From the NCBI RefSeq assembly GCF_055900595.2, contig NZ_CM148325.1: 64,000 nucleotides of DNA. One strand, written 5' to 3'. Below the pieces are notes generated by a model. It made no database searches and had not been told where the DNA came from. It saw only the letters and a list, made by a program, of their open reading frames with translations. The translations under genes and the position numbers were made by a program. Numbering within the stretch: the stretch's first letter is position 1; every line of letters starts with the position of its first letter. Below are positions 303 to 53,062 of this stretch, piece by piece.

Positions 303-420
303 GTACTTCTTACCCAATCAGGTGCACGGACGGTCCCCTCGCCCCTTTGGGGAGAGGGTTAGGGTGAGGGGAAAAATCTTGCCCGAATTAATCAGTAAGT
401 CAGTTTGTCTGCAAACACCA

Positions 421-447
421 GAGGCGCTAACATAGCGCCTCATTTTT
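421..447 (+). terminator. Rho-independent terminator downstream of the monooxygenase gene
   Basis: Perfect 9-bp stem gaggcgcta/tagcgcctc with 3-nt loop, followed by ATTTTT. Confidence 0.6.
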
Positions 448-1160
448 GTGCACAGAAAACCCCCAGCTAGGCTGGGGGTTCCGGAAAGCTTTCAGCTTTG
501 AGCCAGTTATTAAAACCCCTTTTGATTTGTTAAAACACCTTGCGGTCTGGCAACTGCAAGTGTCAAACAAGAAATCAAAAGGGGGTCCCAATGGGGGACG
601 AAAAGAGCTTAGCGCACACCCGCTGGAACTGTAAATATCACATAGTTTTTGCGCCGAAATACCGAAGACTGGCGTTTTACGGAGAGAAGCGTAGGGCGAT
701 AGGCAGTATTTTGAGAAAGCTGTGTGAGTGGAAAAGCGTACGGATTCTGGAAGCAGAGTGCTGCGCAGATCATATCCATATGCTTGTGGAAATCCCACCC
801 AAAATGAGCGTATCCGGCTTTATGGGATATCTGAAAGGGAAAAGCAGTCTGATGCTTTACGAGCAGTTTGGGGATTTGAAATTCAAATACAGAAACAGGG
901 AGTTCTGGTGCCGAGGGTACTATGTCGATACGGTGGGTAAGAACACGGCGAAGATACAGGACTACATAAAGCACCAGCTTGAAGAGGATAAAATGGGGGA
1001 GCAGTTATCGATTCCATATCCGGGCAGCCCGTTTACGGGCCGTAAGTAACGAAGTTGAATGCAAATGTCAGATCGTATGCGCCTGTTAGGGCACGGCTGG
1101 TAACAGAGCCTTACAGGCGCATTTGAAAAACCTCCGGCTATGCCGGAGGATATTTATTTT
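445..1160 (+). mobile_element. IS200 insertion sequence (IS200/IS605 family), ends approximate
   Basis: 152-aa TnpA ORF; perfect left-end hairpin cccccagc-tag-gctggggg at about 460-478; stem-loop around the start codon (RBS sequestration); right-end hairpins at about 1088-1149. Length about 710 bp matches IS200. Exact ends not determinable by eye. Confidence 0.65.
591..1049 (+). CDS. tnpA: IS200 transposase TnpA (Y1 HUH transposase)
   Basis: 152 aa, MGDEKSLAHTRWNCKYHIVF... with the HxH motif (HIHMLVEIPP) and catalytic Tyr region; matches the IS200 TnpA I remember. ORF-track 540..1049 trimmed to the ATG at 591. Confidence 0.9.
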   Translation: MGDEKSLAHTRWNCKYHIVFAPKYRRLAFYGEKRRAIGSILRKLCEWKSVRILEAECCADHIHMLVEIPPKMSVSGFMGYLKGKSSLMLYEQFGDLKFKYRNREFWCRGYYVDTVGKNTAKIQDYIKHQLEEDKMGEQLSIPYPGSPFTGRK

Positions 1161-1173
1161 TGCGGGTGATGAT

Positions 1174-2121
1174 ATGCGTGTGTTACTGGCACCGATGGAG
1201 GGTGTACTCGACTCTCTGGTGCGTGAATTGCTGACCGAAGTTAACGACTACGATCTGTGCATCACCGAGTTTGTCCGCGTGGTGGATCAACTGCTGCCGG
1301 TAAAAGTTTTTCATCGCATTTGCCCGGAGCTACAAAACGCCAGCCGAACGCCATCCGGTACGCTGGTGCGCGTGCAATTGCTGGGGCAGTTCCCACAATG
1401 GCTGGCAGAGAACGCCGCCCGTGCGGTGGAGTTAGGTTCCTGGGGTGTGGATCTTAATTGCGGCTGTCCGTCGAAAACGGTTAACGGTAGCGGCGGCGGG
1501 GCGACACTACTCAAAGATCCTGAACTCATCTACCAGGGTGCAAAAGCGATGCGTGAAGTTGTACCGGCGCATTTGCCCGTCAGTGTGAAAGTGCGTCTGG
1601 GCTGGGACAGCGGTGAGAAGAAATTTGAAATCGCCGATGCGGTTCAACAGGCTGGCGCTACGGAGTTGGTGGTGCATGGGCGGACAAAAGAGCAGGGGTA
1701 CCGCGCGGAGCATATTGACTGGCAGGCGATTGGCGAGATTCGCCAACGGCTGAATATTCCGGTGATTGCCAACGGTGAAATCTGGGACTGGCAGAGCGCG
1801 CAACAGTGTATGGCGATCAGCGGCTGTGACGCGGTGATGATTGGTCGCGGAGCGCTCAATATTCCCAATCTGAGCCGAGTGGTAAAATATAACGAACCGC
1901 GAATGCCGTGGCCGGAGGTGGTTGCTTTGCTACAAAAATATACCCGTCTGGAAAAGCAGGGCGATACTGGGTTATATCACGTTGCGCGGATTAAACAGTG
2001 GTTGAGTTATTTGCGTAAAGAATACGATGAAGCAACGGAATTATTTCAGCATGTTCGGGTGTTGAATAATTCCCTTGATATTGCAAGGGCTATTCAGACC
2101 ATTGATATCGAGAAACTCTAA
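1174..2121 (+). CDS. dusC: tRNA-dihydrouridine(16) synthase DusC
   Basis: 315 aa from [13 protein letters not shown]..., TIM-barrel Dus family; ORF-track start trimmed from 1123 to the conserved N-terminus. Confidence 0.9.
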
Positions 2122-2185
2122 GAAACCATAGTGATGTTTTTTGACAATGTGTTAGCTCTTTATCAATAGGCCGCACGGTTGTTTG

Positions 2186-2374
2186 GTGGCGTCAAAATCG
2201 CCGAGGCGTTCCCTGAAGGCCGGGGCAGCCCATATGGATGTGGGCTGAGGGCGCGTTTTACAGGGATGTTACCTCGCGCCCGACCCGGTAGCCGTAAGGG
2301 ATAAGCCGAGGGCACCGCGCAGCGGCGATTTTGTTCGCCAGAGCCCGGGGGTGCAGGGGGCGGCGGCGACTGGT
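2186..2374. repeat. GC-rich multi-hairpin intergenic element with terminal inverted repeats (unclassified)
   Basis: Ends ggcgtcaaaatcgccg (about 2187) and cggcgattttgttcgcc (about 2324) are near-perfect inverted repeats; internal perfect hairpins cagccca/tgggctg and gggcgcg/cgcgccc; additional hairpin gggggcg...cgccccc at about 2356-2384. No ORF. Confidence 0.3.
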
Positions 2375-2493
2375 CGCCCCCTGCGCGCTCCTTGCGCTAG
2401 TGATTATATGAAGCAATGCACATGACAGGAGCGCAACAGGATGAGAGACTGAAATATTCTCGTTATTTTCGGATCTGATGACGTTAATTAATT

Positions 2494-2577
2494 TTAAAAT
2501 ATCATCTTAAATACGCCAGTCACCACCAGTAGTCCAATCAGGAAAATAATCAATACAGCCCAGAGTATAATTTTCAT
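2494..2577 (-). CDS. yohP: Small membrane protein YohP (27 aa)
   Basis: Minus-strand ORF MKIILWAVLIIFLIGLLVVTGVFKMIF with an AAGGA RBS about 8 nt upstream; matches the K-12 small protein as I remember it. Below the ORF-track size cutoff. Confidence 0.6.
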   Translation of the reverse strand: MKIILWAVLIIFLIGLLVVTGVFKMIF

Positions 2578-2800
2578 TGGCGTTCCTTTATTTGTGAGTG
2601 TCGAATAAGTATAGGAAAAAACGAAGCCCTTTGCCGTTACTCATAAGTGATTAAGATAAATCGGAGAATATCATTCACTTACTGTATATTTTTCTGAATA
2701 TGTCGTTTTATTGCCACTGATGTATTGCCACGCGAAACTAAAAAATATATTGCATCACACGGTAATCTCCGCGCACCTTTTCTTACCTGACTATTCCTCC

Positions 2801-4237
2801 ATGAATCGTGATTCCTTTTACCCAGCCATCGCCTGTTTTCCTCTGTTACTGATGCTGGCCGGGTGTGCGCCTATGCATGAAACCCGCCAGGCGTTAAGCC
2901 AGCAAACACCCGCTGCGCAAGTTGACACCGCATTACCTACGGCGCTGAAAAATGGTTGGCCAGACAGCCAATGGTGGCTGGAGTATCACGATAATCAACT
3001 CACTTCATTAATTAACTATGCACTGCAGAACGCACCGGATATGCAGGTGGCTGAACAGCGCATTCAGCTGGCTGAAGCCCAGGCGAAGGCAGTTGCCACT
3101 CAGGATGGCCCTCAGATCGATTTTTCTGCGGATATGGAGCGGCAAAAAATGTCGGCAGAAGGGCTAATGGGGCCGTTTGCTCTGAACGATCCTGCCGCAG
3201 GTACGACCGGTCCGTGGTACACCAACGGTACTTTTGGCTTAACGGCGGGCTGGCATCTCGATATCTGGGGAAAGAATCGGGCGGAGGTAACTGCTCGCCT
3301 GGGTACGGTTAAAGCACGAGCGGCGGAACGCGAGCAAACCCGCCAATTGCTGGCTGGCAGCGTTGCCCGCCTTTACTGGGAGTGGCAAACCCAGGCAGCG
3401 TTAAACACTGTTTTGCAGCAAATCGAAAAAGAGCAGAACACCATTATCGCGACCGATCGCCAGCTATATCAGAACGGGATTACTTCTTCAGTTGAAGGTG
3501 TGGAAACCGATATTAATGCCAGCAAGACCCGGCAGCAGCTCAACGATGTCGTGGGAAAAATGAAAATTATTGAGGCACGGTTAAGCGCACTTACAAATCA
3601 CCAGATAAAGTCATTGAAGCTTAAACCGGTTGAGTTGCCGAAAGTGGCAAGTCAGCTTCCTGATGAACTGGGGTATTCATTGCTGGCACGGCGGGCAGAT
3701 TTGCAGGCAGCGCATTGGTACGTTGAGTCATCGTTAAGCACCATTGATGCGGCAAAAGCGGCATTTTACCCTGACATCAACCTGATGGCCTTCCTGCAAC
3801 AGGATGCGTTGCACTTAAGCGATTTGTTCCGTCATTCCGCGCAGCAAATGGGCGTTACGGCAGGCCTGACGCTACCCATTTTCGATAGTGGTCGTCTTAA
3901 CGCCAACCTCGATATTGCAAAAGCCGAAAGCAACTTGTCTATCGCCAGCTACAACAAAGCGGTGGTTGAAGCGGTGAATGACGTGGCGCGGGCAGCCAGT
4001 CAGGTTCAGACGCTGGTGGAGAAAAACCAGCATCAGGCGCAAATTGAGCGCGATGCCTTGCGTGTGGTAGGTCTTGCGCAGGCCCGCTTTAACGCGGGTA
4101 TCATTGCTGGTTCCCGCGTCAGCGAAGCCAGGATCCCGGCGCTGCGTGAGCGGGCCAATGGCCTGTTATTGCAAGGGCAGTGGCTGGATGCCTCCATTCA
4201 ACTCACTGGTGCGTTGGGCGGGGGGTACAAACGCTGA
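2801..4237 (+). CDS. mdtQ: Outer-membrane efflux lipoprotein (NodT/OMF family), intact
   Basis: 478 aa from MNRDSFYPAIACFPLLLMLAGCAP (lipobox LAGC); ORF-track start 2711 is an upstream TTG extension. K-12 mdtQ (yohG) is a pseudogene by my recollection; here the frame is open. Confidence 0.8.
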   Translation: MNRDSFYPAIACFPLLLMLAGCAPMHETRQALSQQTPAAQVDTALPTALKNGWPDSQWWLEYHDNQLTSLINYALQNAPDMQVAEQRIQLAEAQAKAVATQDGPQIDFSADMERQKMSAEGLMGPFALNDPAAGTTGPWYTNGTFGLTAGWHLDIWGKNRAEVTARLGTVKARAAEREQTRQLLAGSVARLYWEWQTQAALNTVLQQIEKEQNTIIATDRQLYQNGITSSVEGVETDINASKTRQQLNDVVGKMKIIEARLSALTNHQIKSLKLKPVELPKVASQLPDELGYSLLARRADLQAAHWYVESSLSTIDAAKAAFYPDINLMAFLQQDALHLSDLFRHSAQQMGVTAGLTLPIFDSGRLNANLDIAKAESNLSIASYNKAVVEAVNDVARAASQVQTLVEKNQHQAQIERDALRVVGLAQARFNAGIIAGSRVSEARIPALRERANGLLLQGQWLDASIQLTGALGGGYKR

Positions 4238-6516: not shown

Positions 6517-6689
6517 CAAGTTCTTTTGCGTTGCATTGCTGGCGTAAATGTCAGCAATGCAGCATTTCCTCACGATTCTCCTTTGACGATCGCACTTTTT
6601 GCTCGTTATGATGGCGTTGCTAGCCTCAGTAAATCCTTACTCCGGCGGTGCGCAACCTGTGCGCGTGAACCACTATCTGAATGCTCATC

Positions 6690-7624: not shown

Positions 7625-7810
7625 GTAGGCAGGATAAGGCGTTTACGCCGCATCAGGCATTCGGAGCACAATGCCTGATGCGATGCTTGCGCATCTTATC
7701 AGGCCTACAAACGTGACGCGTCCGTAGGCAGGATAAGGCGTTCACGCCGCATCCGGCATTCGGTGCACGATGCCTGATGCGATGCTTCTATTTGCATCAG
7801 GCATCCAGCC
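7625..7810. repeat. BIME/REP cluster between pbpG and dld
   Basis: Several REP units (GCCGCATCAGGC, GCCTGATGCGATGC, TAGGCAGGATAAGGCGTT) in alternating orientation. Confidence 0.75.
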
Positions 7811-23191: not shown

Positions 23192-25225
23192 TTATTTCAC
23201 CTGATGGCCCGGTTTAGCACCGGCATCCGGGCTTAGCAGGAAGATATCTTTCCCGCCAGGACCGGCAGCCATCACCATGCCTTCGGAGATACCGAAGCGC
23301 ATTTTACGTGGTGCCAGGTTAGCCACCATAATGGTGTGACGACCAATCAGTGCCTGCGGATCCGGGTAAGCAGAACGAATGCCGGAGAAGACATTGCGTT
23401 TTTCACCGCCGAGATCCAGCGTCAGGCGCAGCAGTTTGTCAGAACCTTCAACAAACTCTGCGTTTTCGATCAACGCCACGCGCAGGTCAACTTTGGCGAA
23501 GTCGTCAAAGGTGATGGTTTCCTGAATCGGATCATCTGCCAGCGGGCCAGTAACTGGTGCGGCAGTGGCTTTCACTTCTTCTTTAGATGCTTCCACCAGT
23601 GCTTCAACCTGCTTCATGTCAATACGGTTATACAGCGCCTTGAACGGATTCACTTTGTGGCCCAGCAGCGGTTGCTGGATACCATGCCAGGTCAGTTCCG
23701 TATTGAGGAATGCTTCTGCACGCTCGGTCAGTTTCGGCAGTACCGGCTTCAGGTAAGTCATCAGCACGCGGAACAGGTTTATGCCCATCGAGCAAATTGC
23801 CTGCAGGTCGGCATCGCGGCCTTCCTGTTTCGCCACCACCCACGGAGCCTGTTCATCGACATAGCGGTTAGCCAGATCAGCCAGCGCCATAATTTCGCGC
23901 ACTGCTTTACCAAATTCGCGGCTTTCCCATGCTTCACCAATCACTTCAGCGGCATCCGTGAAGGTTTTGTACAACTGCGGGTCAGCCAGTTCGCTTGCCA
24001 ACACGCCGTCAAAACGCTTGTTGATAAAGCCCGCGTTACGGGATGCCAGGTTTACAACCTTATTAACGATATCGGCATTCACGCGCTGGACGAAATCCTC
24101 GAGGTTGAGATCGATATCATCAATGCGCGAAGAGAGTTTCGCAGTGTAGTAGTAACGCAGGCTGTCAGCGTCAAAATGATTCAGCCAGGTGCTGGCTTTA
24201 ATAAAGGTGCCGCGAGACTTGGACATCTTCGCGCCGTTCACCGTTACATAGCCGTGAACAAACAGGTTGGTCGGCTTGCGGAAGTTGCTACCTTCCAACA
24301 TGGCAGGCCAGAACAGGCTGTGGAAGTAAACAATATCTTTACCGATGAAGTGGTACAGCTCGGCGGTGGAGTCTTTCTTCCAGTATTCATCGAAGCTTAC
24401 GCTGTCGCCGCGCTTGTCACACAGATTCTTGAAAGAACCCATGTAGCCAATCGGTGCGTCCAGCCAGACGTAGAAATATTTGCCCGGCGCGTTCGGAATT
24501 TCAAAACCGAAGTAAGGGGCGTCGCGGGAGATATCCCATTGTTGCAGGCCAGATTCAAACCACTCCTGCATTTTGTTTGCCACCTGCTCCTGCAACGCAC
24601 CGCTGCGGGTCCATGCCTGCAGCATTTCGCTGAAAGAGGGCAGATCAAAGAAGAAGTGTTCAGAATCACGCATTACCGGGGTAGCGCCAGAAACCACCGA
24701 TTTCGGCTCGATCAGTTCAGTCGGGCTGTAGGTCGCGCCGCAGACTTCGCAGTTATCGCCGTATTGATCCGGGGATTTACATTTCGGGCAGGTGCCTTTT
24801 ACAAAACGGTCCGGCAGGAACATGCCTTTTTCCGGATCGTACAGCTGAGAGATGGTGCGGTTTTTAATAAAACCGTTTTCTTTCAGGCGAGAGTAGATAA
24901 GTTCTGACAACTGGCGGTTCTCTTCGCTGTGCGTCGAGTGATAGTTGTCATAGCTGATGTTAAAGCCTGCGAAATCAGTCTGATGCTCCTGACTCATTTC
25001 GCCAATCATCTGCTCCGGAGTGATACCAAGCTGCTGAGCTTTCAACATGATTGGTGTACCGTGGGCATCGTCGGCGCAGATGAAGTTGACCTCGTGGCCG
25101 CGCATTCGCTGGTAACGGACCCAGACATCAGCCTGGATGTGCTCCAGCATATGGCCGAGGTGGATTGAGCCGTTAGCGTACGGCAGTGCGCACGTCACCA
25201 GAATTTTCTTCGCGACTTGAGTCAT
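23192..25225 (-). CDS. metG: Methionine--tRNA ligase
   Basis: 677 aa from [29 protein letters not shown] (HIGH motif), KMSKS motif present; ORF-track start trimmed. Confidence 0.95.
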
Positions 25226-25356
25226 AGTAGGCATTACTTCTTAATAGTGAAAAGGGGTTAGATAGTACCAAATGGGAAAATGTTAAGTAAGTACTTCTCT
25301 ATATTCTTCAGGTAAACTATCAGCTGATGGTTTATCTATACAAAAAAGGAGTCGGG

Positions 25357-26466
25357 ATGAACGAACAATCCCAGGCCAAATCACCAGAAGCCTTGCGCGC
25401 AATGGTCGCCGGGACACTGGCCAATTTTCAGCACCCAACCCTGAAGCATAACCTCACCACGCTGAAAGCGTTGCACCATGTCGCCTGGATGGACGACACG
25501 TTGCATGTGGAACTGGTTATGCCATTCGTCTGGCATAGCGCGTTCGAAGAGTTAAAAGAGCAATGTAGCGCTGAACTGCTGCGCATCACCGGGGCGAAAG
25601 CTATCGACTGGAAACTGTCGCACAATATCGCCACCTTAAAACGCGTGAAGAATCAGCCGGGAATTAACGGCGTGAAGAACATCATTGCGGTCAGCTCCGG
25701 TAAAGGCGGCGTGGGTAAATCCTCCACGGCGGTAAATCTGGCGCTGGCACTGGCGGCGGAAGGGGCGAAAGTCGGCATTCTGGACGCCGATATCTACGGC
25801 CCATCAATACCCACCATGCTGGGCGCAGAAAATCAGCGTCCAACTTCGCCGGACGGTACCCATATGGCACCGATTATGTCTCATGGACTGGCAACCAATT
25901 CAATTGGTTATCTGGTCACTGACGACAATGCGATGGTGTGGCGTGGTCCGATGGCGAGCAAGGCGTTAATGCAGATGTTGCAGGAAACCTTGTGGCCGGA
26001 TCTCGACTATCTGGTGCTTGATATGCCGCCAGGCACCGGTGACATTCAATTGACACTGGCACAAAACATTCCAGTAACTGGCGCGGTAGTGGTCACCACC
26101 CCGCAGGACATTGCGTTGATCGATGCGAAAAAAGGCATTGTGATGTTCGAGAAAGTCGAGGTTCCGGTGCTCGGTATTGTCGAGAACATGAGTGTGCATA
26201 TTTGCAGTAACTGTGGTCACCATGAACCGATTTTCGGTACCGGTGGTGCAGAGAAACTGGCCGAGAAATACCACACGCAGTTGCTGGGGCAGATGCCGTT
26301 ACACATCTCCTTACGTGAAGATCTCGATAAAGGCACGCCAACGGTTATCAGCCGTCCGGAGAGCGAATTTACTGCTATCTACCGCCAGCTGGCTGACCGC
26401 GTTGCAGCCCAGCTTTATTGGCAGGGAGAAGTCATTCCTGGCGAGATTTCCTTCCGCGCGGTCTGA
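25357..26466 (+). CDS. mrp: Fe-S cluster carrier ATPase Mrp/ApbC
   Basis: 369 aa from MNEQSQAKSPEALRAMVAG...; deviant Walker A GKGGVGKS; CxxC motif. Confidence 0.9.
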   Translation: MNEQSQAKSPEALRAMVAGTLANFQHPTLKHNLTTLKALHHVAWMDDTLHVELVMPFVWHSAFEELKEQCSAELLRITGAKAIDWKLSHNIATLKRVKNQPGINGVKNIIAVSSGKGGVGKSSTAVNLALALAAEGAKVGILDADIYGPSIPTMLGAENQRPTSPDGTHMAPIMSHGLATNSIGYLVTDDNAMVWRGPMASKALMQMLQETLWPDLDYLVLDMPPGTGDIQLTLAQNIPVTGAVVVTTPQDIALIDAKKGIVMFEKVEVPVLGIVENMSVHICSNCGHHEPIFGTGGAEKLAEKYHTQLLGQMPLHISLREDLDKGTPTVISRPESEFTAIYRQLADRVAAQLYWQGEVIPGEISFRAV

Positions 26467-26495
26467 CGCGTATTAACCTTTTTGGTTGTTTTTCG

Positions 26496-26537
26496 TACAC
26501 CGCAGAGATGTTACATTGATGCGGTGTATTTGTTTTT
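26496..26537 (+). terminator. Rho-independent terminator after mrp
   Basis: 9-bp stem tacaccgca/tgcggtgta with long loop, followed by TTTGTTTTT. Confidence 0.5.
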
Positions 26538-26728
26538 GCCGCATTAATGAACACTTATTTAATGCTGCGAATATTCTGCGGACCTTCGTCCGAAACTCTA
26601 TAAAGTCGATTGATTGTACAGGCAATGCTTCATTATCATCCTTCGTGGCTGTGTAGTGGATGTACAGCTATAGTTTGTTATGCACTCATTCTATCCAGGC
26701 ATAACCTTTACTACAGGGATAACGTTCA

Positions 26729-27010
26729 ATGAATAAGTACTGGCTGTCAGGAATTATTTTTCTTGCCTATGGAATGGCTTCTCCCGCGTTCTCTTTACAG
26801 ACTGCCACATTAACGATTAATGGCAGGATCAGTCCCCCAACATGCAGTATGGCAATGGTTAATGGTCAACCTCAACAGCATTGTGGTCAGTTAACGTATA
26901 ATGTTGATACTCGTCATCAGGTTTCTTCGCCAGTTAAAGGTGTGACGACAGAAGTGGTTGTTGCAGGTAGTGATAGCAAACGTCGAATCGTGTTAAATCG
27001 CTACGATTAA
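26729..27010 (+). CDS. yehE: Secreted DUF2574 protein YehE
   Basis: 93 aa with signal peptide; immediately upstream of the yeh fimbrial genes. Confidence 0.8.
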   Translation: MNKYWLSGIIFLAYGMASPAFSLQTATLTINGRISPPTCSMAMVNGQPQQHCGQLTYNVDTRHQVSSPVKGVTTEVVVAGSDSKRRIVLNRYD

Positions 27011-27305
27011 TTTGCCACCCTGGTTTTTTAAGCGGATTTAGAAAGCTGAAATCATTCGTGTGAATGATTTAAGCTTTTTTATTGATATTAATAATACCAT
27101 TTAAAAAAATCTGCATTAATTAATAGATGTGATAAATATTTAATATGCTTAAGTATTTGTTGTATTTATATTGCAATAGTTAATTTGTTTTAAATCAATA
27201 AAACAATATGTTTACATTGCGGCAACTTTTTTGATGTGAGAAATTTGTTTCCAAGAGATACAGACTCTTAACAACCAAAAAATAAATTTTATTAAGGAAC
27301 ATATT
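27011..27305 (+). promoter_or_regulatory. Highly AT-rich promoter/regulatory region of the yehDCBA fimbrial operon
   Basis: About 300 bp at roughly 20-25% GC with phased A/T tracts, as in H-NS-silenced fimbrial promoters. Confidence 0.5.
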
Positions 27306-27848
27306 ATGAAACGTTCAATTATTGCTGCCGCTGTCTTTTCTTCTTTTTTTATGAGCGCTGGGGTATTTGCCGCAGACGTTGATACCGGAACATTAACCAT
27401 TAAAGGGAATATTGCAGAATCTCCGTGTAAATTCGAAGCGGGTGGTGATTCAGTAAGTATTAATATGCCAACTGTACCAACCACTGTCTTTGAAGGTAAA
27501 GCTAAATACTCGACCTATGATGATGCAGTCGGTGTAACCAGCAGCATGTTAAAAATTAGCTGTCCGAAAGAAGTTGCTGGTGTAAAACTCTCGTTGATTA
27601 CCAACGATAAAATAACCGGAAACGATAAGGCGATAGCCAGTAGCAACGATACCGTGGGGTACTATCTCTATTTAGGTGATAACAGCGATGTCCTGGATGT
27701 TTCTGCACCTTTTAACATTGAGAGTTATAAAACAGCGGAAGGTCAATATGCTATTCCGTTTAAAGCAAAATACCTGAAGCTGACAGATAATTCAGTGCAA
27801 TCAGGTGATGTGTTATCTTCTCTGGTTATGCGTGTGGCGCAGGATTAA
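27306..27848 (+). CDS. yehD: Fimbrial major subunit YehD
   Basis: 180 aa, signal peptide, Cys pair, fimbrial-subunit C-terminal beta-strand pattern. Confidence 0.88.
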   Translation: MKRSIIAAAVFSSFFMSAGVFAADVDTGTLTIKGNIAESPCKFEAGGDSVSINMPTVPTTVFEGKAKYSTYDDAVGVTSSMLKISCPKEVAGVKLSLITNDKITGNDKAIASSNDTVGYYLYLGDNSDVLDVSAPFNIESYKTAEGQYAIPFKAKYLKLTDNSVQSGDVLSSLVMRVAQD

Positions 27849-27884
27849 TAAATAAAATTTCAAATTTCTCCAGGTAATAAACAT

Positions 27885-27911
27885 GGCCGCTATCCCCATG
27901 GCGGCCTTTTA
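27885..27911 (+). terminator. Intra-operon attenuator/terminator after the major subunit gene yehD
   Basis: Stem ggccgctat/atggcggcc with CCCC loop followed by TTTT; usual position for a chaperone-usher operon attenuator. Confidence 0.6.
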
Positions 27912-27928
27912 ATTTAAGAGGCATTAAG

Positions 27929-28603
27929 ATGAAAGGATTATTAGCTTTACTCATTTCTTCTATGGTCCTTCCTGCGCATGCCGGAATTGTTATCTACGGG
28001 ACGCGCATTATTTACCCGGCAGAAAATAAAGAAGTGATGGTGCAGTTGATGAACCAGGGAAACCGTTCTTCGCTGCTGCAGGCGTGGATTGATGATGGCG
28101 ATACGTCGTTACCACCAGAAAAAATTCAGGTTCCTTTCATGTTAACGCCACCAGTGGCCAAAATAGGGGCAAATTCCGGGCAGCAAGTAAAAATCAAAAT
28201 TATGTCGAATAAACTGCCCACTAATAAAGAGAGCATTTTTTATCTGAATGTTCTGGATATTCCACCAAATAGTCCAGAGCAAGAGGGCAAGAATGCACTG
28301 AAATTTGCAATGCAAAACAGAATCAAATTGTTTTACCGGCCTGCGGGTATTGCACCGGTAAATAAAGCGACATTTAAAAAGTTACTGGTAAATCGCAGTG
28401 GCAATGGATTGGTGATAAAAAATGACTCAGCAAATTGGGTAACGATTTCGGATGTCAAAGCTAATAATGTCAAAGTCAATTATGAAACTATTATGATTGC
28501 CCCCTTAGAAAGTCAGAGTATTAATGTCAAAAGTAATAATGCGAATAACTGGTATCTGACCATTATCGATGACCATGGCAACTATATTAGTGACAAAATT
28601 TAA
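27929..28603 (+). CDS. yehC: Periplasmic fimbrial chaperone YehC
   Basis: 224 aa, signal peptide, PapD-like chaperone. Confidence 0.88.
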   Translation: MKGLLALLISSMVLPAHAGIVIYGTRIIYPAENKEVMVQLMNQGNRSSLLQAWIDDGDTSLPPEKIQVPFMLTPPVAKIGANSGQQVKIKIMSNKLPTNKESIFYLNVLDIPPNSPEQEGKNALKFAMQNRIKLFYRPAGIAPVNKATFKKLLVNRSGNGLVIKNDSANWVTISDVKANNVKVNYETIMIAPLESQSINVKSNNANNWYLTIIDDHGNYISDKI

Positions 28604-28618
28604 TTGCAGGAGCTGCCT

Positions 28619-31099
28619 ATGTTGAGAATGACCCCACTTGCATCAGCAATCGTAGCGTTATTGCTCGGCATTGAAGCTTATGCAGCTGAAGAAACCTTTG
28701 ATACCCATTTTATGATAGGTGGAATGAAAGACCAGCAGGTTGCAAATATTCGTCTTGATGATAATCAACCCTTGCCGGGGCAGTATGACATCGATATTTA
28801 TGTCAATAAGCAATGGCGCGGGAAATATGAGATTATTGTTAAAGACAACCCGCAAGAAACATGTTTATCAAGGGAAATTATCAAGCGGTTAGGCATTAAT
28901 ACCGATAACTTTGCCAGCGGTAAGCAATGTTTAACATTTGAGCAACTTGTTCACGGTGGGAGCTATACCTGGGATATCGGAGTTTTTCGTCTCGATTTCA
29001 GTGTACCGCAGGCGTGGGTGGAAGAACTGGAAAGTGGCTATGTTCCACCGGAAAACTGGGAGCGGGGTATTAATGCGTTTTATACCTCTTATTATGTGAG
29101 TCAGTATTACAGCGACTATAAAGCGTCGGGTAATAGCAAGAGTACATATGTACGTTTTAACAGCGGGTTAAACTTACTGGGGTGGCAACTGCATTCTGAT
29201 GCCAGTTTAAGTAAAACAAATAGCAATCCAGGGGTGTGGAAAAGCAATACCCTGTATCTGGAACGTGGATTTGCCCAACTTCTCGGCACGCTTCGCGTGG
29301 GTGATATGTACACATCAAGCGATATTTTTGATTCTGTTCGCTTCAGCGGTGTGCGGTTGTTTCGTGATATGCAGATGTTGCCTAACTCGAAACAAAATTT
29401 TACTCCACGGGTGCAGGGGATTGCTCAGAGTAACGCGCTGGTAACTATTGAACAGAACGGTTTTGTGGTTTATCAGAAAGAGGTTCCTCCTGGCCCGTTT
29501 GCGATTACAGATTTGCAGTTGGCCGGTGGTGGAGCAGATCTTGATGTCAGCGTGAAAGAGGCGGACGGTTCGGTAACCACCTATCTGGTGCCTTATGCAG
29601 CAGTGCCGAATATGCTGCAACCCGGCGTGTCGAAATATGATTTTGCGGCAGGTCGTAGCCATATTGAAGGGGCGAGCAAACAAAGTGATTTTGTTCAGGC
29701 GGGTTATCAGTATGGTTTTAATAACTTATTGACGCTGTATGGCGGATCGATGGTCGCGAATAATTATTACGCGTTCACTTTGGGGACTGGCTGGAATACA
29801 CGCATTGGTGCCATTTCCGTCGATGCCACGAAGTCGCATAGTAAACAAGACAACGGCGATGTGTTTGACGGGCAAAGTTATCAAATTGCCTACAACAAAT
29901 TTGTGAGCCAAACGTCGACGCGTTTTGGTCTGGCGGCCTGGCGTTATTCGTCGCGTGATTACCGGACATTTAACGATCACGTTTGGGCAAACAATAAAGA
30001 TAATTATCGCCGTGATGAAAACGATATCTATGACATTGCCGATTATTACCAGAACGATTTTGGCCGTAAAAATAGCTTTTCTGCCAATATGAGCCAGTCA
30101 TTGCCAGAAGGCTGGGGTTCTGTGTCCTTAAGTACGTTATGGCGAGATTACTGGGGGCGTAGCGGCAGCAGTAAGGATTATCAGTTGAGTTATTCCAACA
30201 ACCTGCGACGGATAAGCTATACCCTCGCGGCAAGCCAGGCTTATGACGAGAATCATCATGAAGAGAAACGTTTTAATATTTTTATAGCGATTCCCTTTGA
30301 TTGGGGTGATGACGTTACGACGCCTCGTCGGCAAATATATATATCTAACTCAACGACGTTTGATGATCAGGGGTTTGCCTCAAATAATACGGGATTATCG
30401 GGAACCGTTGGAAGCCGGGATCAATTTAACTATGGGGTCAACTTAAGTCATCAGCATCAGGGAAATGAAACGACAGCTGGCGCGAATTTGACCTGGAACG
30501 CGCCGGTTGCGACAGTGAATGGCAGTTATAGTCAGTCGAGTGCTTATCGACAAGCTGGAGCCAGTATTTCAGGGGGCATTGTCGCCTGGTCGGGTGGCGT
30601 TAATCTGGCGAACCGTCTTTCCGAAACGTTTGCTGTGATGAATGCGCCAGGAATTAAAGATGCTTATGTCAATGGGCAAAAATATCGCACAACAAACCGT
30701 AATGGAGTGGTGGTATACGACGGAATGACACCTTATCGGGAAAATCACCTGATGCTGGATGTGTCGCAAAGCGATAGCGAAGCAGAATTACGTGGCAACC
30801 GGAACATTGCCGCCCCTTTTCGCGGCGCGGTTGTACTGGTTAATTTTGATACCGATCAGCGCAAGCCCTGGTTTATAAAAGCGTTAAGAACGGATGGGCA
30901 ACCATTAACGTTTGGTTATGAAGTCAATGATATCCATGGTCATAATATTGGCGTTGTCGGCCAGGGAAGCCAGTTATTTATTCGCACCAATGAAGTACCG
31001 CCATCGGTTAATGTAGCAATTGATAAGCAACAAGGGCTTTCATGCACAATCACCTTCGGTAAAGAGATTGATGAAAGTAGAAATTATATTTGCCAGTAA
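28619..31099 (+). CDS. yehB: Outer-membrane fimbrial usher YehB
   Basis: 826 aa from MLRMTPLASAIVALLLG...; usher family; start trimmed from 28604. Confidence 0.88.
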   Translation: MLRMTPLASAIVALLLGIEAYAAEETFDTHFMIGGMKDQQVANIRLDDNQPLPGQYDIDIYVNKQWRGKYEIIVKDNPQETCLSREIIKRLGINTDNFASGKQCLTFEQLVHGGSYTWDIGVFRLDFSVPQAWVEELESGYVPPENWERGINAFYTSYYVSQYYSDYKASGNSKSTYVRFNSGLNLLGWQLHSDASLSKTNSNPGVWKSNTLYLERGFAQLLGTLRVGDMYTSSDIFDSVRFSGVRLFRDMQMLPNSKQNFTPRVQGIAQSNALVTIEQNGFVVYQKEVPPGPFAITDLQLAGGGADLDVSVKEADGSVTTYLVPYAAVPNMLQPGVSKYDFAAGRSHIEGASKQSDFVQAGYQYGFNNLLTLYGGSMVANNYYAFTLGTGWNTRIGAISVDATKSHSKQDNGDVFDGQSYQIAYNKFVSQTSTRFGLAAWRYSSRDYRTFNDHVWANNKDNYRRDENDIYDIADYYQNDFGRKNSFSANMSQSLPEGWGSVSLSTLWRDYWGRSGSSKDYQLSYSNNLRRISYTLAASQAYDENHHEEKRFNIFIAIPFDWGDDVTTPRRQIYISNSTTFDDQGFASNNTGLSGTVGSRDQFNYGVNLSHQHQGNETTAGANLTWNAPVATVNGSYSQSSAYRQAGASISGGIVAWSGGVNLANRLSETFAVMNAPGIKDAYVNGQKYRTTNRNGVVVYDGMTPYRENHLMLDVSQSDSEAELRGNRNIAAPFRGAVVLVNFDTDQRKPWFIKALRTDGQPLTFGYEVNDIHGHNIGVVGQGSQLFIRTNEVPPSVNVAIDKQQGLSCTITFGKEIDESRNYICQ

Positions 31100-31114
31100 T
31101 AGTCAGGTGGTTCT

Positions 31115-32149
31115 ATGAAAATTCGCATAATGCTATTTATATTAACGATGATGGTTATGCCTGTGAGCTATGCAGCATGTTATAGTGAGTTATCTGTTCA
31201 GCACAATTTGATTGTTCAGGGGGATTTTGCACTTACTCAAACACAAATGGCAACATATGAGCATAATTTTAATGATTCGTCATGCGTGAGTACAAATACT
31301 ATCACCCCTATGAGCCCGTCGGATGTTATTGTTGGACTTTATAACGATACCATTAAATTAAATTTACATTTTGAATGGACCAATAAAAACAACATCACGT
31401 TGTCAAATAATCAGACCAGTTTCACCAATGGTTATTCGGTAACGGTGACACCTGCGGCCAGTAATGCAAAAGTGAATGTTTCTGCGGGGGGCGGCGGTTC
31501 AGTGATGATTAATGGTGTTGCGACATTATCCAGTGCTTCATCATCGACACGCGGGAGTGCTGCAGTACAATTTTTACTGTGTTTATTCGGTGGCAAGTCA
31601 TGGGATGCATGTGTAAATAGCTACAGAAATGCATTGGCACAAAATGCAGGTGTCTATTCCTTTAATCTGACATTGTCATACAACCCGATAACCACAACCT
31701 GCAAACCGGACGATTTATTAATTACTTTAGAGAGTATTCCCGTTTCACAATTACCTGCTACAGGTAACAAAGCAACAATAAATAGTAACAAAGGGGATAT
31801 TGTTCTGCGTTGTAAAAACTTATTAGGTCAACAAAATCAAACATCACGGAAAATGCAGGTGTATTTATCAAGTTCTGACTTGTTAACCAACAGCAACACA
31901 ATACTGAAAGGTGCGGAAGATAATGGTGTAGGATTTATTCTTGAAAGTAATGGTTCTCCAGTCACACTTTTAAATATCACTAACAGCAGTAAAGAATACA
32001 CAAATTTAAAAGAAATTGCGGCAAAGTCAATACTTACAGATACAACGGTTTCAATTCCGATAACTGCCAGTTACTACGTCTACGATACAAATAAAATTAA
32101 ATCTGGCGCACTGGAGGCAACCGCATTAATCAACGTGAAATACGACTAA
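31115..32149 (+). CDS. yehA: Fimbrial tip adhesin-like protein YehA
   Basis: 344 aa, signal peptide, two-domain adhesin-like fimbrial protein. Confidence 0.85.
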   Translation: MKIRIMLFILTMMVMPVSYAACYSELSVQHNLIVQGDFALTQTQMATYEHNFNDSSCVSTNTITPMSPSDVIVGLYNDTIKLNLHFEWTNKNNITLSNNQTSFTNGYSVTVTPAASNAKVNVSAGGGGSVMINGVATLSSASSSTRGSAAVQFLLCLFGGKSWDACVNSYRNALAQNAGVYSFNLTLSYNPITTTCKPDDLLITLESIPVSQLPATGNKATINSNKGDIVLRCKNLLGQQNQTSRKMQVYLSSSDLLTNSNTILKGAEDNGVGFILESNGSPVTLLNITNSSKEYTNLKEIAAKSILTDTTVSIPITASYYVYDTNKIKSGALEATALINVKYD

Positions 32150-32205
32150 TAACAAGCAAGACGAGCAAGTGGCTAATAATAAAAAATAACAAGGTGTCTG
32201 CATTT

Positions 32206-32232
32206 CCCCCTCATGATGAGGGGGCTTTTTTT
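32206..32232 (+). terminator. Rho-independent terminator of the yeh fimbrial operon
   Basis: Perfect stem ccccctca/tgaggggg with 3-nt loop followed by a run of 7 T; the T-run overlaps the rcnB stop codon on the other strand. Confidence 0.75.
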
Positions 32233-32569
32233 AGCGATGATAAAAAATCTCACCATCGTAGGCTTTAATGATTTTACCGTCGGTGTCGCTGATCAACACA
32301 TACGCGCCACCCATATAGGTCCAGTGCGTCCCGGCATCAGGCGCGGGCAGGTTACGTAACTGCCACTGCTTAATGTTGTACTCATCGGTGCGGTACATCT
32401 CTGGGACGGTATCGCCTGGTTTGAAATGCTTAAAGTCAGCAATGAAACTGCTTAACTCATACTTAGAAATTCCCGAGGTATTGGTCGAACCCGCGGTGGC
32501 TGGTGCGGCCCAGGCGGCACTGGTAACCAGCAAAAGCGCACCCAGCAACATCTTATTTTTAATGGTCAT
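32231..32569 (-). CDS. rcnB: Periplasmic nickel/cobalt homeostasis protein RcnB
   Basis: 112 aa from MTIKNKMLLGALLLVTSAAWA (signal peptide); ORF-track start 32749 is an N-terminal extension. Confidence 0.85.
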   Translation of the reverse strand: MTIKNKMLLGALLLVTSAAWAAPATAGSTNTSGISKYELSSFIADFKHFKPGDTVPEMYRTDEYNIKQWQLRNLPAPDAGTHWTYMGGAYVLISDTDGKIIKAYDGEIFYHR

Positions 32570-32773
32570 ATACTCTCCACTTTGGGGATCTGTAATATCA
32601 GTCGCATATCTTTCCTGCCATACAATATAACTGACAAGCGATATTTTGTTAGTGATCCCATGATTTCGTAAAAAGTGTAAATGAAAGGATGCCCTAAAAG
32701 CATCCTTAGCGAGCAGAGAGCCAGCGGAAATAGCTGATTTAAGAATCATCCTGGGCTGAAGATAACATGCAGC

Positions 32774-33595
32774 CTATCGCATAATGCCCATAAAGCCATG
32801 CACGCCCATATACACCCCAACTAAGCCAATCAACAGACTGGAAAAATAGGGGGCACGTTTAGCGAGAGTGTTAAATCCGCTCCAGCGTTTTGCGACCTGC
32901 TGAACGCTGATTGCTGCGCCAACGCCTACGGTGACTAGCGTTAACGCCAGGCCAATGCTGAAACTGACGACCAGTGTTGCGCCTAGTGTCAGGGCTTTCA
33001 ACTGAATACAAATCAACAGCACGGTAATTGCTGCCGGGCAGGGGATCAGTCCACCTGTTAACCCAAACAATAAAATTTGCCAGTTGGTCACTTCTCTGCC
33101 ATTGAAGCGTCGTTTGATGTCATTGGCATGGGCTCGTGCATGAGCATCCTGATACTCCCCATGTTCGTGATGGTGATGATGTCCATGGTCGTGGTGATCT
33201 TCGTGATCGTGATGATACTCATGATCATGCCCGTGCATATTCTCCAGCCAGTTACGTTCGCCGCGCCAGGTACGCCAGAACATCCAGAACGCGGTGCCAA
33301 TAATGATCACCGCGGAAATCAACTGGAGCCACGGTTCTGCAGATTGAGCAGTAAAACGTTTGCTGATCACCATCCCGCCAAAGGCAATCAACCAGACCAC
33401 CGCGGTATGCGAAATGGTTGCTGCCAGTCCGAGCATCACCGCCTGTTTAATGGTGCCTTTGATGGCGATGATAAACGCCGCCATCATCGTTTTTGAGTGC
33501 CCTGGTTCCAGGCCATGAAGCGCACCAAGTAAGATGGCGCTGGGAATGAAGAACCAGGCGTTTCCTTGCTGAAGAAGAGTGGTAAATTCAGTCAT
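32774..33595 (-). CDS. rcnA: Nickel/cobalt efflux protein RcnA
   Basis: 273 aa membrane protein with a long His-rich loop (HGHDHEYHHDHEDHHDHGHHHHHEHGEY). Confidence 0.92.
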   Translation of the reverse strand: MTEFTTLLQQGNAWFFIPSAILLGALHGLEPGHSKTMMAAFIIAIKGTIKQAVMLGLAATISHTAVVWLIAFGGMVISKRFTAQSAEPWLQLISAVIIIGTAFWMFWRTWRGERNWLENMHGHDHEYHHDHEDHHDHGHHHHHEHGEYQDAHARAHANDIKRRFNGREVTNWQILLFGLTGGLIPCPAAITVLLICIQLKALTLGATLVVSFSIGLALTLVTVGVGAAISVQQVAKRWSGFNTLAKRAPYFSSLLIGLVGVYMGVHGFMGIMR

Positions 33596-33632
33596 GATAA
33601 TAATTCTTAGTATTAATTCGACAATCTGATTC

Positions 33633-33667
33633 TACTCCCCCCCAGTACATGATACTACCCCCCAGTA
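33633..33667. promoter_or_regulatory. Two RcnR operator sites (TACT-G6-N-AGTA type) in the rcnR-rcnA divergent intergenic region
   Basis: tactcccccccagta and tactaccccccagta, 20 bp apart; matches the established RcnR recognition motif. Confidence 0.8.
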
Positions 33668-33715
33668 GATTAATAGTGCTATGATTTTTCATGTTCTTGT
33701 TAACCAGGTGTTGCC

Positions 33716-33988
33716 ATGTCTCATACAATCCGTGATAAACAGAAACTGAAAGCGCGTGCCAGTAAGATTCAGGGCCAGGTCGTGGCGCTCAAGAAAATGC
33801 TCGACGAGCCGCACGAATGCGCAGCTGTTCTACAACAGATTGCTGCTATCCGTGGCGCGGTAAACGGCCTGATGCGCGAAGTGATTAAGGGGCATCTGAC
33901 GGAACACATCGTTCACCAGGGGGATGAGCTAAAACGTGAAGAAGATCTGGATGTCGTTCTGAAGGTGCTGGATTCTTATATCAAATGA
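33716..33988 (+). CDS. rcnR: Ni/Co-responsive repressor RcnR (CsoR/RcnR family)
   Basis: 90 aa; conserved H-C-H-H metal-ligand pattern of the family. Confidence 0.92.
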
Positions 33989-34097
33989 AAGTGCCTAATA
34001 TGGCCGTAGTTGAGGCAATAAATAGAGGGACAAGTGACGTTAAGCTGAATTAGAGTAAATGGCGTGAGGACACACGCCATTCGAGGATATAGTTTGA

Positions 34098-34412
34098 TTA
34101 ATTTTCGAAAAATTGCTTCACAGCCCAGCCACCATGACCACCTGGAGTTATGAATGAAACAAAACCTTTGTCATCGACGCTCTGGATTTCTACTGTCATT
34201 GATTCATCTAACACGCGACATTTATTGGATGTAATGAGACTCAGCATAGCCTGTTGGTCATTGTCCTGAATGTAACTGATCATCTCGTAAAAGTCAGTTA
34301 ACTTTTTACAGTTAAATGTACCTTCTTTAAGTGTTGCGCTGTCTCCGTGACTTAGTGCGAATGCATTTGGCATCATTGCCACAAAGATGACGGTAACGAG
34401 TAGTTTTTTCAT
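34098..34412 (-). CDS. Small secreted protein, unknown function (signal peptide, 2 Cys)
   Basis: 104 aa, MKKLLVTVIFVAMMPNAFA signal peptide; low-GC context; function not recognisable by eye. Confidence 0.6.
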   Translation of the reverse strand: MKKLLVTVIFVAMMPNAFALSHGDSATLKEGTFNCKKLTDFYEMISYIQDNDQQAMLSLITSNKCRVLDESMTVEIQSVDDKGFVSFITPGGHGGWAVKQFFEN

Positions 34413-34421
34413 TGTAGCCTC

Positions 34422-34769
34422 TTATAATTCAGAACATTCACTGATGTTGTAAGTGCCTTTTCTACCATCATCGTTTACGAGATGTAGCACGAAGATGATG
34501 GGATTGGCATCAATGAAAGATACAGAGACGTTCCCGCTTTCGGTGCTATACATCTTTGCAATCTGTTTTTCACCAATATATGAAAGATCCCAACTCACTC
34601 CGTTCAAGCTAAAATGCATCTGTTTGCCGTCAATATCGATGGAGGATTGTGCCGTAACGGTTTTCCCATTGCTGCCAATTTGACCCTGCTGAAGAGCATC
34701 ACATTTATAGGAGCTTGCATAAGTAAATAGAGGTAGTAGCAGAAGTGCAGCAAAAATTTTACTCTTCAT
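34422..34769 (-). CDS. Small secreted protein, unknown function (signal peptide, 2 Cys)
   Basis: 115 aa, MKSKIFAALLLLPLFTYASS signal peptide; tandem with the 104-aa ORF 9 bp downstream. Confidence 0.6.
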   Translation of the reverse strand: MKSKIFAALLLLPLFTYASSYKCDALQQGQIGSNGKTVTAQSSIDIDGKQMHFSLNGVSWDLSYIGEKQIAKMYSTESGNVSVSFIDANPIIFVLHLVNDDGRKGTYNISECSEL

Positions 34770-35137
34770 ATTTTCCCTTTGCTTGGATTTGAGTTACCTA
34801 TTTTGGGGTAGTCATTATAAAACTATTAATTAGTAAAATGAACAAGTTTTCATTTGTTTAGTAATGGTATTGTTTAGGTTTGAAATTATTACGTACTTTC
34901 ATAGCAATAGGTTGGATAAACAGCAGTTCAGGGAACAAGTTGCACTATCTACATACTTTCCCGCTTTCCATTGTATGTTAGGTAATAGATAGCCTTTGCC
35001 CGTAAGACTAAAAATATTAGAAATGACTCATTCGAATACCTTCTATTCACCTTAATATAGGTTTGATTATTGTAATCGTTTAATGTGTCTTATGGATTTT
35101 TTCCTACTTTTCATTTGCATAATATAGGGGGCACAGC

Positions 35138-35257
35138 ATGCTCTTGAAATTAATTATTAAGATATTTAAATTTTACAGCACACAACTACTTTTCGTTGTC
35201 TTATGTGTTGAACGTACTTCGAGTATAGGTAGGGTTGTATATATATTGCGTGGGTAG
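35138..35257 (+). CDS. Candidate small hydrophobic peptide (39 aa)
   Basis: ORF MLLKLIIKIFKFYSTQLLFVVLCVERTSSIGRVVYILRG preceded by TAGGGGG about 7 nt upstream; lies in the AT-rich islet; below the ORF-track cutoff; could be spurious. Confidence 0.25.
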   Translation: MLLKLIIKIFKFYSTQLLFVVLCVERTSSIGRVVYILRG

Positions 35258-35822
35258 AGTTAGAATAGAGGAGGCATCATTTATAGAATATTCAAGAACG
35301 TTAACCTGTGATCAATAAATAAAAATATCAAATGGTGTTCAAACATATTTTTCTATGAAAAATCCAGCCATCTATGATGAATTTTTAGATCCATTTTAAT
35401 TAAAGTATGATTATGAACCAATATTTAGCCAAGAATGGTGGTATAGCGCGTATCCAATGACACCGGAAAACGCATCTATGAAGTCCTTGTTTATCTCTAT
35501 AAGAGGAAATCAACACTAATAAAATATAGTGATGTAACACATCGAGCAGGTTGCTCTGATGCTGGTCTTCAACTGTGGCTTAAACAGCTATCAAACTTCG
35601 GTGTTATTGAGATGAAAGAATTATCTTTCTCAACTTTCAATCTCAAAAAGCTAGAGGAAATAGACCTTAATTATTCCACTCTCTAAACTTATCTCTTTAT
35701 TTAAAGTAAAAATGAAAATATTATGGTATCAGCTACGTGGTGGTAACTGGTGTTTATGATCATAGGTACACATATACAGGGAACCCTGGAAAACAAAAGT
35801 AATATATTGATGATTTCGTTTG

Positions 35823-36062
35823 TTATAACTTCGTGGTATCAAGTCCGGCGGCTTTGAGTCGCTCGGTAAGATTTCTCATTTTGCTGAACTCTGTACCAAA
35901 GCTGGCTTTAAGTCCTACACCTTCGCAAAACTCTTTTGCCGTGACGTTTTTAAGATGGTCAGCGTATTTGATCATCTGGAGGTGCATTTCCATCGTTTGG
36001 CTATTTCGTGGTGCGCTGCTAATGGCTTGCTTAATGTTCTCGTAGATCTGGGTTTCTGTCAT
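35823..36062 (-). CDS. Small putative DNA-binding protein (79 aa), unknown family
   Basis: ORF with a GGTGAGA RBS; central helix-turn-helix-like segment (VTAKEFCEGVGLKASFGTEFSKMRNL); AT-rich upstream region with 12-bp direct repeats. Confidence 0.55.
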   Translation of the reverse strand: MTETQIYENIKQAISSAPRNSQTMEMHLQMIKYADHLKNVTAKEFCEGVGLKASFGTEFSKMRNLTERLKAAGLDTTKL

Positions 36063-36269
36063 TTTTTATCTCACCTATCAAATTTAGATAAATAATATAA
36101 ATTAGATAAATAAGATAATCAATAGTTTTTACCATATGAATAATGGATGTGGATTGTTTCTTTTTCATTTCTGATATGGAGTACAAAATGGGGTCACAAT
36201 GAAGAAGCGATGAATGGAGGCGAGCTTGCATCTGCAAGCCTCTTCCCCTAATCTGGCACAAAATATAGA

Positions 36270-36407
36270 GATTCAACCAAACGACTCGGGGTGCCCTTCT
36301 GCGTGAAGGCTGAGAAATACCCGTATCACCTGATCTGGATAATGCCAGCGTAGGGAAGTCACGGACCACCAGGTCATTGCTTCTTCACGTTATGGCAGGA
36401 GCAAACT
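36270..36407 (+). promoter_or_regulatory. TPP (thi-box) riboswitch in the thiM leader
   Basis: Sequence AACCAAACGACTCGGGGTGCCCTTCTGCGTGAAGGCTGAGAAATACCCGTATCACCTGATCTGGATAATGCCAGCGTAGGGAAGTC... matches the E. coli thiM aptamer and expression platform; the anti-SD region overlaps the thiM RBS. Confidence 0.9.
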
Positions 36408-37196
36408 ATGCAAGTCGACCTGCTGAGTTCCGCGCAATCTGCGCACGCGTTACACCTTTTTCACCAACATTCCCCTCTTGTGCATTGCATGACCAATGAT
36501 GTGGTGCAAACCTTTACTGCCAATACCTTGCTGGCGCTCGGTGCATCGCCAGCGATGGTTATCGAAACCGAAGAAGCCAGTCAGTTTGCGGCTATCGCCA
36601 GTGCCTTGCTAATTAACGTCGGCACGCTGACGCAGCCACGCGCACAGGCGATGCGTGCTGCCGTTGAACAGGCAACACACTCTCAAACCCCCTGGACGCT
36701 TGATCCGGTCGCGGTTGGCGCACTCGATTATCGTCGCCGTTTTTGTCATGAACTTTTATCTTTTAAACCGGCAGCGATACGTGGTAATGCTTCGGAAATC
36801 ATGGCATTAGCTGGCGTTGCTAATGGTGGACGGGGAGTGGACACCACTGACGCCGCAGCTAATGCGATACCCGCTGCACAAACACTGGCACGGGAAACTG
36901 GCGCAATCGTCGTGGTCACAGGCGAGGTGGATTATGTTACCGATGGTCGTCGCACCGTTGGCATTCACGGCGGCAATCCGTTAATGACCAAAGTGGTAGG
37001 AACTGGCTGTGCATTATCGGCAGTTGTCGCTGCCTGTTGTGCATTACCTGGCGATATGCTGGAAAATATCGCATCTGCCTGTCACTGGATGAAACAAGCC
37101 GGAGAACGCGCCGTCGCCAGAAGTGAAGGGCCTGGCAGTTTTGTTCCCCATTTTCTTGATGCGCTCTGGCAATTGACGCAGGAGGTGCAGGCGTGA
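36408..37196 (+). CDS. thiM: Hydroxyethylthiazole kinase
   Basis: 262 aa; 4-bp overlap with thiD. Confidence 0.92.
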
Positions 37197-37993
37197 AACG
37201 AATTAACGCTCTGACAATTGCAGGCACTGATCCCAGTGGTGGCGCAGGAATTCAGGCAGATCTCAAAACGTTCTCGGCACTTGGCGCTTATGGTTGCTCA
37301 GTGATTACTGCACTGGTGGCGCAAAATACCCGTGGCGTACAGTCGGTGTATCGCATTGAGCCTGATTTTGTCGCCGCCCAGCTCGATTCGGTGTTCAGCG
37401 ATGTGCGAATCGATACCACTAAAATCGGTATGTTGGCGGAAACTGATATTGTTGAAGCGGTGGCAGAACGGTTGCAACGTTATCAGATCCAAAACGTGGT
37501 GCTCGACACCGTTATGCTGGCAAAAAGCGGCGACCCGCTGCTTTCACCTTCGGCGGTTGCTACGCTGCGCAGTCGATTATTGCCACAGGTTTCATTAATA
37601 ACGCCAAACTTGCCCGAAGCAGCCGCCTTGCTCGACGCGCCACACGCGCGCAACGAACAGGAAATGCTGGAACAAGGGCGATCGCTGTTGGCGATGGGCT
37701 GTGGCGCAGTGCTAATGAAAGGTGGTCATCTGGATGATGAGCAAAGCCCGGACTGGCTGTTTACCCGCGAGGGTGAACAACGGTTTACCGCACCGCGCAT
37801 TATGACCCAAAACACCCACGGCACTGGTTGTACGCTCTCTGCGGCGTTGGCTGCACTGCGCCCGCGCCATACAAACTGGGCTGACACCGTACAGGAGGCA
37901 AAAAGCTGGCTTTCATCGGCATTAGCCCAGGCCGACACGCTGGAAGTTGGTCACGGTATTGGTCCGGTTCACCACTTCCACGCCTGGTGGTGA
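37193..37993 (+). CDS. thiD: Hydroxymethylpyrimidine/phosphomethylpyrimidine kinase
   Basis: 266 aa; GTG start; ribokinase-like fold. Confidence 0.92.
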
Positions 37994-38057
37994 GCACCGT
38001 ACTATAGCTGCTTTGGTTATTGTCAGTCTTTGGCGCTGACATTCAGGGATGAAACCA

Positions 38058-52891: not shown

Positions 52892-52978
52892 AAAAAATAA
52901 GCCCGTGTAAGGGAGATTACACAGGCTAAGGAGGTGGTTCCTGGTACAGCTAGCATTTTATGGGTTATGTTTTTCAGC
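52892..52978 (-). ncRNA. cyaR: CyaR (RyeE) Hfq-dependent sRNA
   Basis: Minus-strand sequence GCTGAAAAACATAACCCATAAAATGCTAGCTGTACCAGGAACCACCTCCTTAGCCTGTGTAATCTCCCTTACACGGGCTTATTTTTT matches CyaR as I remember it, including the terminator hairpin and U-tail; located just downstream of yegQ as in K-12. Confidence 0.85.
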
Positions 52979-53062
52979 GGAACGGATGATAACCTTAATA
53001 ACTGCAGCTGTATGTGATCGGTTTCTAAGAATTTTCCATCCGGGAAAAATAATCGAAATTAA

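Follow-up and report, generated by a model that had tools for sequence, protein, structure and literature searches.

The 35 bp at positions 33633-33667 of the window, by which we mean the whole 64-kb stretch of DNA that was analysed, very probably (about 0.95) are the two RcnR operator sites in the control region shared by the divergent E. coli genes rcnR and rcnA. This operator pair is a known and well-characterised element, already described, which appears here in its canonical form; the one addition that we make to it is a predicted placement of the two divergent promoters. Site 1, proximal to rcnA, occupies 33633..33647 and reads TACTGGGGGGGAGTA on the minus strand, and site 2, proximal to rcnR, occupies 33653..33667 and reads TACTGGGGGGTAGTA on the same strand. 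Both are exact matches to the pattern TACT-G6-N-AGTA, with N = G in site 1 and N = T in site 2. The plus strand reads TACTCCCCCCCAGTA and TACTACCCCCCAGTA at these positions, and the G tracts of both sites lie on the minus strand, the coding strand of rcnA. The sites are separated by a 5-bp spacer (33648..33652, minus strand), which is TCATG on the G strand, CATGA on the plus strand and TCAGG in K-12, giving a span of 15 + 5 + 15 bp. A repeat finder grouped the two sites into an 18-nt direct repeat whose copies start 20 bp apart. The sequence-only reading had placed two sites of this type "20 bp apart" in the divergent promoter region; both proved to be exact and on the minus strand, they do sit between rcnA and rcnR, and the 20 bp is right as a start-to-start distance, the gap itself being 5 bp.

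The pair lies inside a 120-bp gap between the divergent genes rcnA (minus strand) and rcnR (plus strand), 37 nt from the start codon of rcnA and 48 nt from that of rcnR, the same distances as in K-12. rcnR (33716..33988, plus strand) encodes a 90-aa Ni(II)/Co(II)-sensing repressor of the CsoR/RcnR family, which scored 197 bits against the NCBIfam equivalog NF011613 (cut-off 138) and matched Pfam PF02583. rcnA (32774..33595, minus strand) encodes a Ni/Co efflux permease of 273 aa (NCBIfam NF007454, 555 bits), and downstream of it rcnB (32231..32569, minus strand) encodes a periplasmic accessory protein of 112 aa (Pfam PF11776), the start codon of which is internal to a longer mechanical ORF at 32231-32749. 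The same gene names are used in the RefSeq annotation of matching E. coli genomes. Compared to K-12, RcnR and RcnB are each 100% identical; RcnA is full length at 98% identity, its His-rich loop being one residue shorter. The length of RcnA varies among strains, through this loop (window 33130-33240) and other changes: rcnA has 273 codons in the window, 274 in K-12 and 283 (852 bp) in O157:H7 Z1767, and yet another length in WW2, judged by record coordinates.

In K-12 and Salmonella, metal-free RcnR tetramers, one per TACT-G6-N-AGTA site, repress rcnA(B) and rcnR. As Ni(II) or Co(II) builds up in the cytoplasm, the metal is bound by His3, Cys35, His60 and His64 of RcnR together with its N-terminus, and the DNA affinity of metal-bound RcnR falls roughly 40- to 100-fold, leading to expression of the efflux pump. 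The RcnR of the window carries His3, Cys35, His60 and His64, the H-C-H-H ligand set that defines Ni/Co-sensing RcnRs (PMC11672702). The start-to-start distance of 20 bp (21 bp in other species) corresponds to about two helical turns, and both tetramers would share one face of the DNA. Since the sites, RcnR and RcnB are identical to those of K-12, and the full-length RcnA matches at 98%, the circuit appears intact by sequence, and the E. coli lineage of the window would thus retain the textbook Ni/Co efflux switch unbroken. RcnR operators under Ni/Co-dependent derepression had been proposed from the sequence alone, and the consensus, the identity of the K-12 sites and the identical RcnR all agree with that proposal; the accompanying claim that the regulatory logic is intact stands to the extent just given and no further.

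The tandem RcnR operator of E. coli K-12 was reported by Iwig & Chivers (2009), and its consensus and number of sites, as quoted in later papers (PMC7055735, PMC3902906, PMC7105576), equal those of the window. In the K-12 MG1655 genome both 15-bp sites are base-for-base identical to those of the window, with the same order, orientation and 20-bp spacing. They are located at 2185845-2185859 and 2185865-2185879, within the rcnR/rcnA intergenic region, and no other match was present in the 12 kb around rcnR/rcnA, even allowing one mismatch. The secondary quotations together with this sequence identity suggest that 2185845-2185879 corresponds to the footprinted sites. For Salmonella enterica RcnR, a 35-bp probe with two putative sites, the same length as the span in the window, took up two tetramers, one at each site (Osman et al., PMC5016687, PMC5709419). 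The K(DNA) of the apo protein was 1.5e-7 M, compared to at least 5.9e-6 M with Ni and at least 1.5e-5 M with Co, so that Ni(II) or Co(II) weakened binding by a factor of at least 40 to 100 (PMC5016687). S. enterica subsp. diarizonae (L066) has both sites as well, also 5 bp apart; its spacer is TTACA instead of TCATG, and its RcnR is about 94% identical. In the classification of CsoR/RcnR operators, type 1 sites consist of one G/C tract between AT-rich inverted repeats. The sites of the window resemble this type, with an unbroken G tract between TACT/AGTA inverted ends and a tandem arrangement, and differ from the CsoR-type (type 2) sites, which have interrupted G/C tracts and longer spacing (PMC3902906).

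Scanning one genome per species for two exact TACT-G6-N-AGTA sites 1-30 bp apart yielded 78 loci, in Enterobacterales, Vibrio, Shewanella and Chromobacterium, the lowest RcnR identity among them being 58%. As the scan demanded exact sites, it shows their distribution and arrangement, and not how well each site keeps its 14 specified bases. Read along the G strand, the order was divergent rcnR, the N = T site, spacer, the N = G site and rcnA in every locus with long enough flanks. N was T in all 78 rcnR-proximal sites and G in 77 of 78 rcnA-proximal sites. With the window and K-12 added to the 78 loci, 63 of the 80 sequences had a spacer of 5 bp, 16 had one of 6 bp and one had a spacer of 24 bp; the first T of the spacer was kept in 79 of 80, while the remainder varied, as did most flanking positions. 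For a check free of the bias towards exact sites, we searched plasmids with the RcnR protein instead of the sites. An rcnR gene on an IncHI2 plasmid (92% identical), found by the protein search alone, carried this tandem too, its spacer being 5 bp. In Ralstonia, an rcnR-rcnA pair (62% identical) had a single site, TACTCCCCCCTAGTA, compared to two in the window.

Some loci depart from the arrangement of the window. In Enterobacter/Klebsiella rcnR loci (RcnR about 62% identical, 6-bp spacer) an extra inverted degenerate site, TACTCCCCC(T/G)GAGTA, lies 7 nt outward of the rcnR-proximal site (L015, L017, L043, L048, L049, L051-L053, L055, L062, L075, L081 and L085, in the left flank of site 2), and Kosakonia and related loci (L040, L046, L058, L063, L065) have AACTGGGGGGGAGTT at the corresponding position. 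In Vibrio diabolicus (L057:4404-4457) three sites follow one another in direct orientation, and the middle site has a G5 tract. In Shewanella (L008:631-1137; L030, L031) the tandem operator and rcnR are present with no RcnA homologue next to them, and the gene after the rcnR operator in L008 encodes a 116-aa membrane protein whose family is unassigned.

Conserved positions outside the sites were then used for placing the promoters. On the rcnA side, the candidate -10 hexamer is TAGAAT (33629..33634, minus strand), the first two bases of which are the last two of site 1. In this TAnnnT hexamer, position 6 was T in 79 of 79 loci and position 5 was A in 67 of 79, and just past it the information content drops to about 0.1-0.4 bit. 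On the rcnR side, conservation points to an extended -10 element, TGcTATGAT (33677..33685, plus strand; TG at 33677-33678, hexamer at 33680-33685). In 44 of 80 loci a TGnTAnnnT motif has its start exactly 10 nt outward of site 2; in 21 more, including those with an inserted third site, the distance is 27-28 nt, and on the rcnA side the motif was absent in all 80. Because the two sides are asymmetric, we interpret these flanking signals as promoter elements, not as symmetric contacts of the repressor. On balance, TAGAAT (33634-33629) is probably the -10 element of rcnA and TGcTATGAT the extended -10 element of rcnR. The cross-species comparison would in this way provide testable positions for both divergent promoters relative to the operators, and a literature search for mapped transcription starts of rcnA and rcnR found none giving positions. 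If rcnA starts near 33622, both sites together would extend from about -45 to about -11, and RcnR would directly exclude RNA polymerase. With an rcnR start near 33692, site 2 would fill the -35 region, at about -39 to -25, and this looser overlap would fit a weaker autoregulation.

Other placements have to be considered. The predicted -35 element of rcnA, TAGTAT, fits the consensus poorly, and RcnR might instead contact the T that is invariant four bases outside site 1. As a -10 element of rcnR, the outward hexamer TAGATT overlapping site 2 is less likely, its position 6 being T in only 39 of 80 loci, as against the fixed distance of TGnTAnnnT. A simple sigma-70 scan favoured other hexamers and missed TGcTATGAT. 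Its rcnA promoter, TTGTCG-16-TATTAT, ends 1 nt before the ATG, and its rcnR promoter, TTAACC-18-TACAAT, runs into the rcnR coding region; both were rejected because they leave no room for a leader or a ribosome-binding site and because their elements are not conserved across species.

Between the window and K-12, the 120-bp intergenic region has three single-base differences, at 33621 in the predicted rcnA leader, at 33649 in the spacer (plus strand A in the window, C in K-12) and at 33693 near the predicted rcnR start. The exact intergenic allele of the window was present at 99% identity or more in 12 of 5,426 complete E. coli genomes. The A at 33649 is the fourth spacer position, which varies freely among species; it is rare in E. 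coli, and the TCATG spacer is shared with E. albertii and E. coli E69 (L011, L034). In the promoter geometry proposed above, this base would lie between the -35 and -10 elements of rcnA, and the allele is most likely neutral. The operator itself differs in other E. coli genomes. About 9 complete genomes (e.g. 97-3250, 90-3040, YPE10) have lost 20 bp by deletion and retain a single TACT-C7-AGTA site. Three sites, the result of 20- or 23-bp duplications, are present in EC26, O157:H7 NE 1092-2 and WW2, with three more such genomes suggested by match spans. APEC37 has a C10 tract at the operator, and in two genomes a tract has lost one C (C6, site 1) or gained one (C7, site 2); some of these variants may reflect sequencing errors. 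The variant loci are L007:2964-3063, L086:221-360, L087:221-360, L088:221-363 and L089:221-343, homologous to window 33596-33715. These copy-number variants, although found in few natural isolates, could be used to study repression strength at one, two and three RcnR sites. It is unlikely, in our view, that the operator is a naturally tunable element in which copy number (1-3 units), G-tract length and the A at 33649 shift the Ni/Co set-point of rcnA. If it were, the variants would be natural alleles of the metal-efflux threshold, and the question for the window would be the effect of the single spacer change.

The same alleles bear on whether the G tracts and the 20-bp unit also form a slippage-prone contingency element that retunes or switches rcnA between lineages. 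One-site, three-site and C6/C8/C10-tract alleles do occur in other complete E. coli genomes, as such an element would have it, but they are rare (about 20 of roughly 5,360 genomes carrying the region) and have no known phenotype, some of the single-base tract changes may be sequencing errors, with rcnA marked as frameshifted in one such assembly, and the window has the canonical two sites; we regard this reading as very unlikely. That the formaldehyde sensor FrmR, a second E. coli member of the CsoR family, is the main or a joint user of the sites, integrating a signal other than Ni/Co, seems to us extremely improbable. Of its paralogues RcnR is closest to FrmR, on whose model it scores 76 bits, and FrmR operators are likewise C/G tracts with flanking T/A-rich inverted repeats (PMC5016687). 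However, the FrmR-like gene on an Acinetobacter plasmid (44% identical) has a different operator, TATACTATGGGGTACTATAGTAT, while the tandem sites accompany rcnR wherever the flanks were long enough to tell.

A chance or purely structural origin of the G-tract palindromes, as an intergenic feature with no regulatory role, found no specific support and is effectively refuted. The two sites are the only exact TACT-G6-N-AGTA matches in the 64-kb window, and 100 dinucleotide-preserving shuffles of the window gave 0 exact matches, a chance expectation of 0. Two further matches in the window appeared at 3 mismatches, a frequency equal to the chance rate, and no other RcnR-type site with fewer than 3 mismatches was found there. 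A hairpin or cruciform was considered as a role for the pair and is unsupported: each site has self-complementary ends of 4 bp only, the G tracts, both being on one strand, are unable to base-pair with one another, and a longer inverted repeat enclosing both sites reaches 73% complementarity. An Rfam search of the rcnA-rcnR intergenic region found no RNA family. Also against chance or structure, the sites are identical to those of K-12, whose binding is published, and their arrangement is kept beside rcnR in 78 species though the spacer varies. The reading as RcnR operators of the Ni/Co efflux switch is the one that we retain.

Beyond the operator, only 8 of the 5,426 complete E. coli genomes matched the surrounding 20 kb (24000-44000) at 99% identity or more, and the next genome reached 98.2%; O55:H7 strains were at about 96.3% and most genomes at 95-99%. 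The window may thus represent an uncommon, rarely sequenced E. coli lineage, or a region with a divergent history. In Z0117EC0005, which is otherwise 99.9% identical to the window over the surrounding 20 kb, yehA is annotated as frameshifted, whereas in the window this gene (31115-32149), encoding a fimbrial adhesin of 344 aa, is intact. Between rcnR and the thiM TPP riboswitch lie three small minus-strand genes (34098-34412, 34422-34769 and 35823-36062), which are missing from K-12 and present in O157:H7. The product of the last is a Pfam HTH_73 protein, and those of the other two had no Pfam match. GF3-3 has genes with RelA/SpoT and NACHT domains downstream of rcnR in place of the three small genes, and 34098-36062 looks like a variable insertion hotspot. 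Rfam matches above the gathering score elsewhere in the window were STnc490 sRNA (458-581), Peptidase-S11 RNA (6605-6685), two naRNA4 (7628-7705 and 44228-44298), the thiM TPP riboswitch (36277-36373) and CyaR (52895-52980, minus strand).
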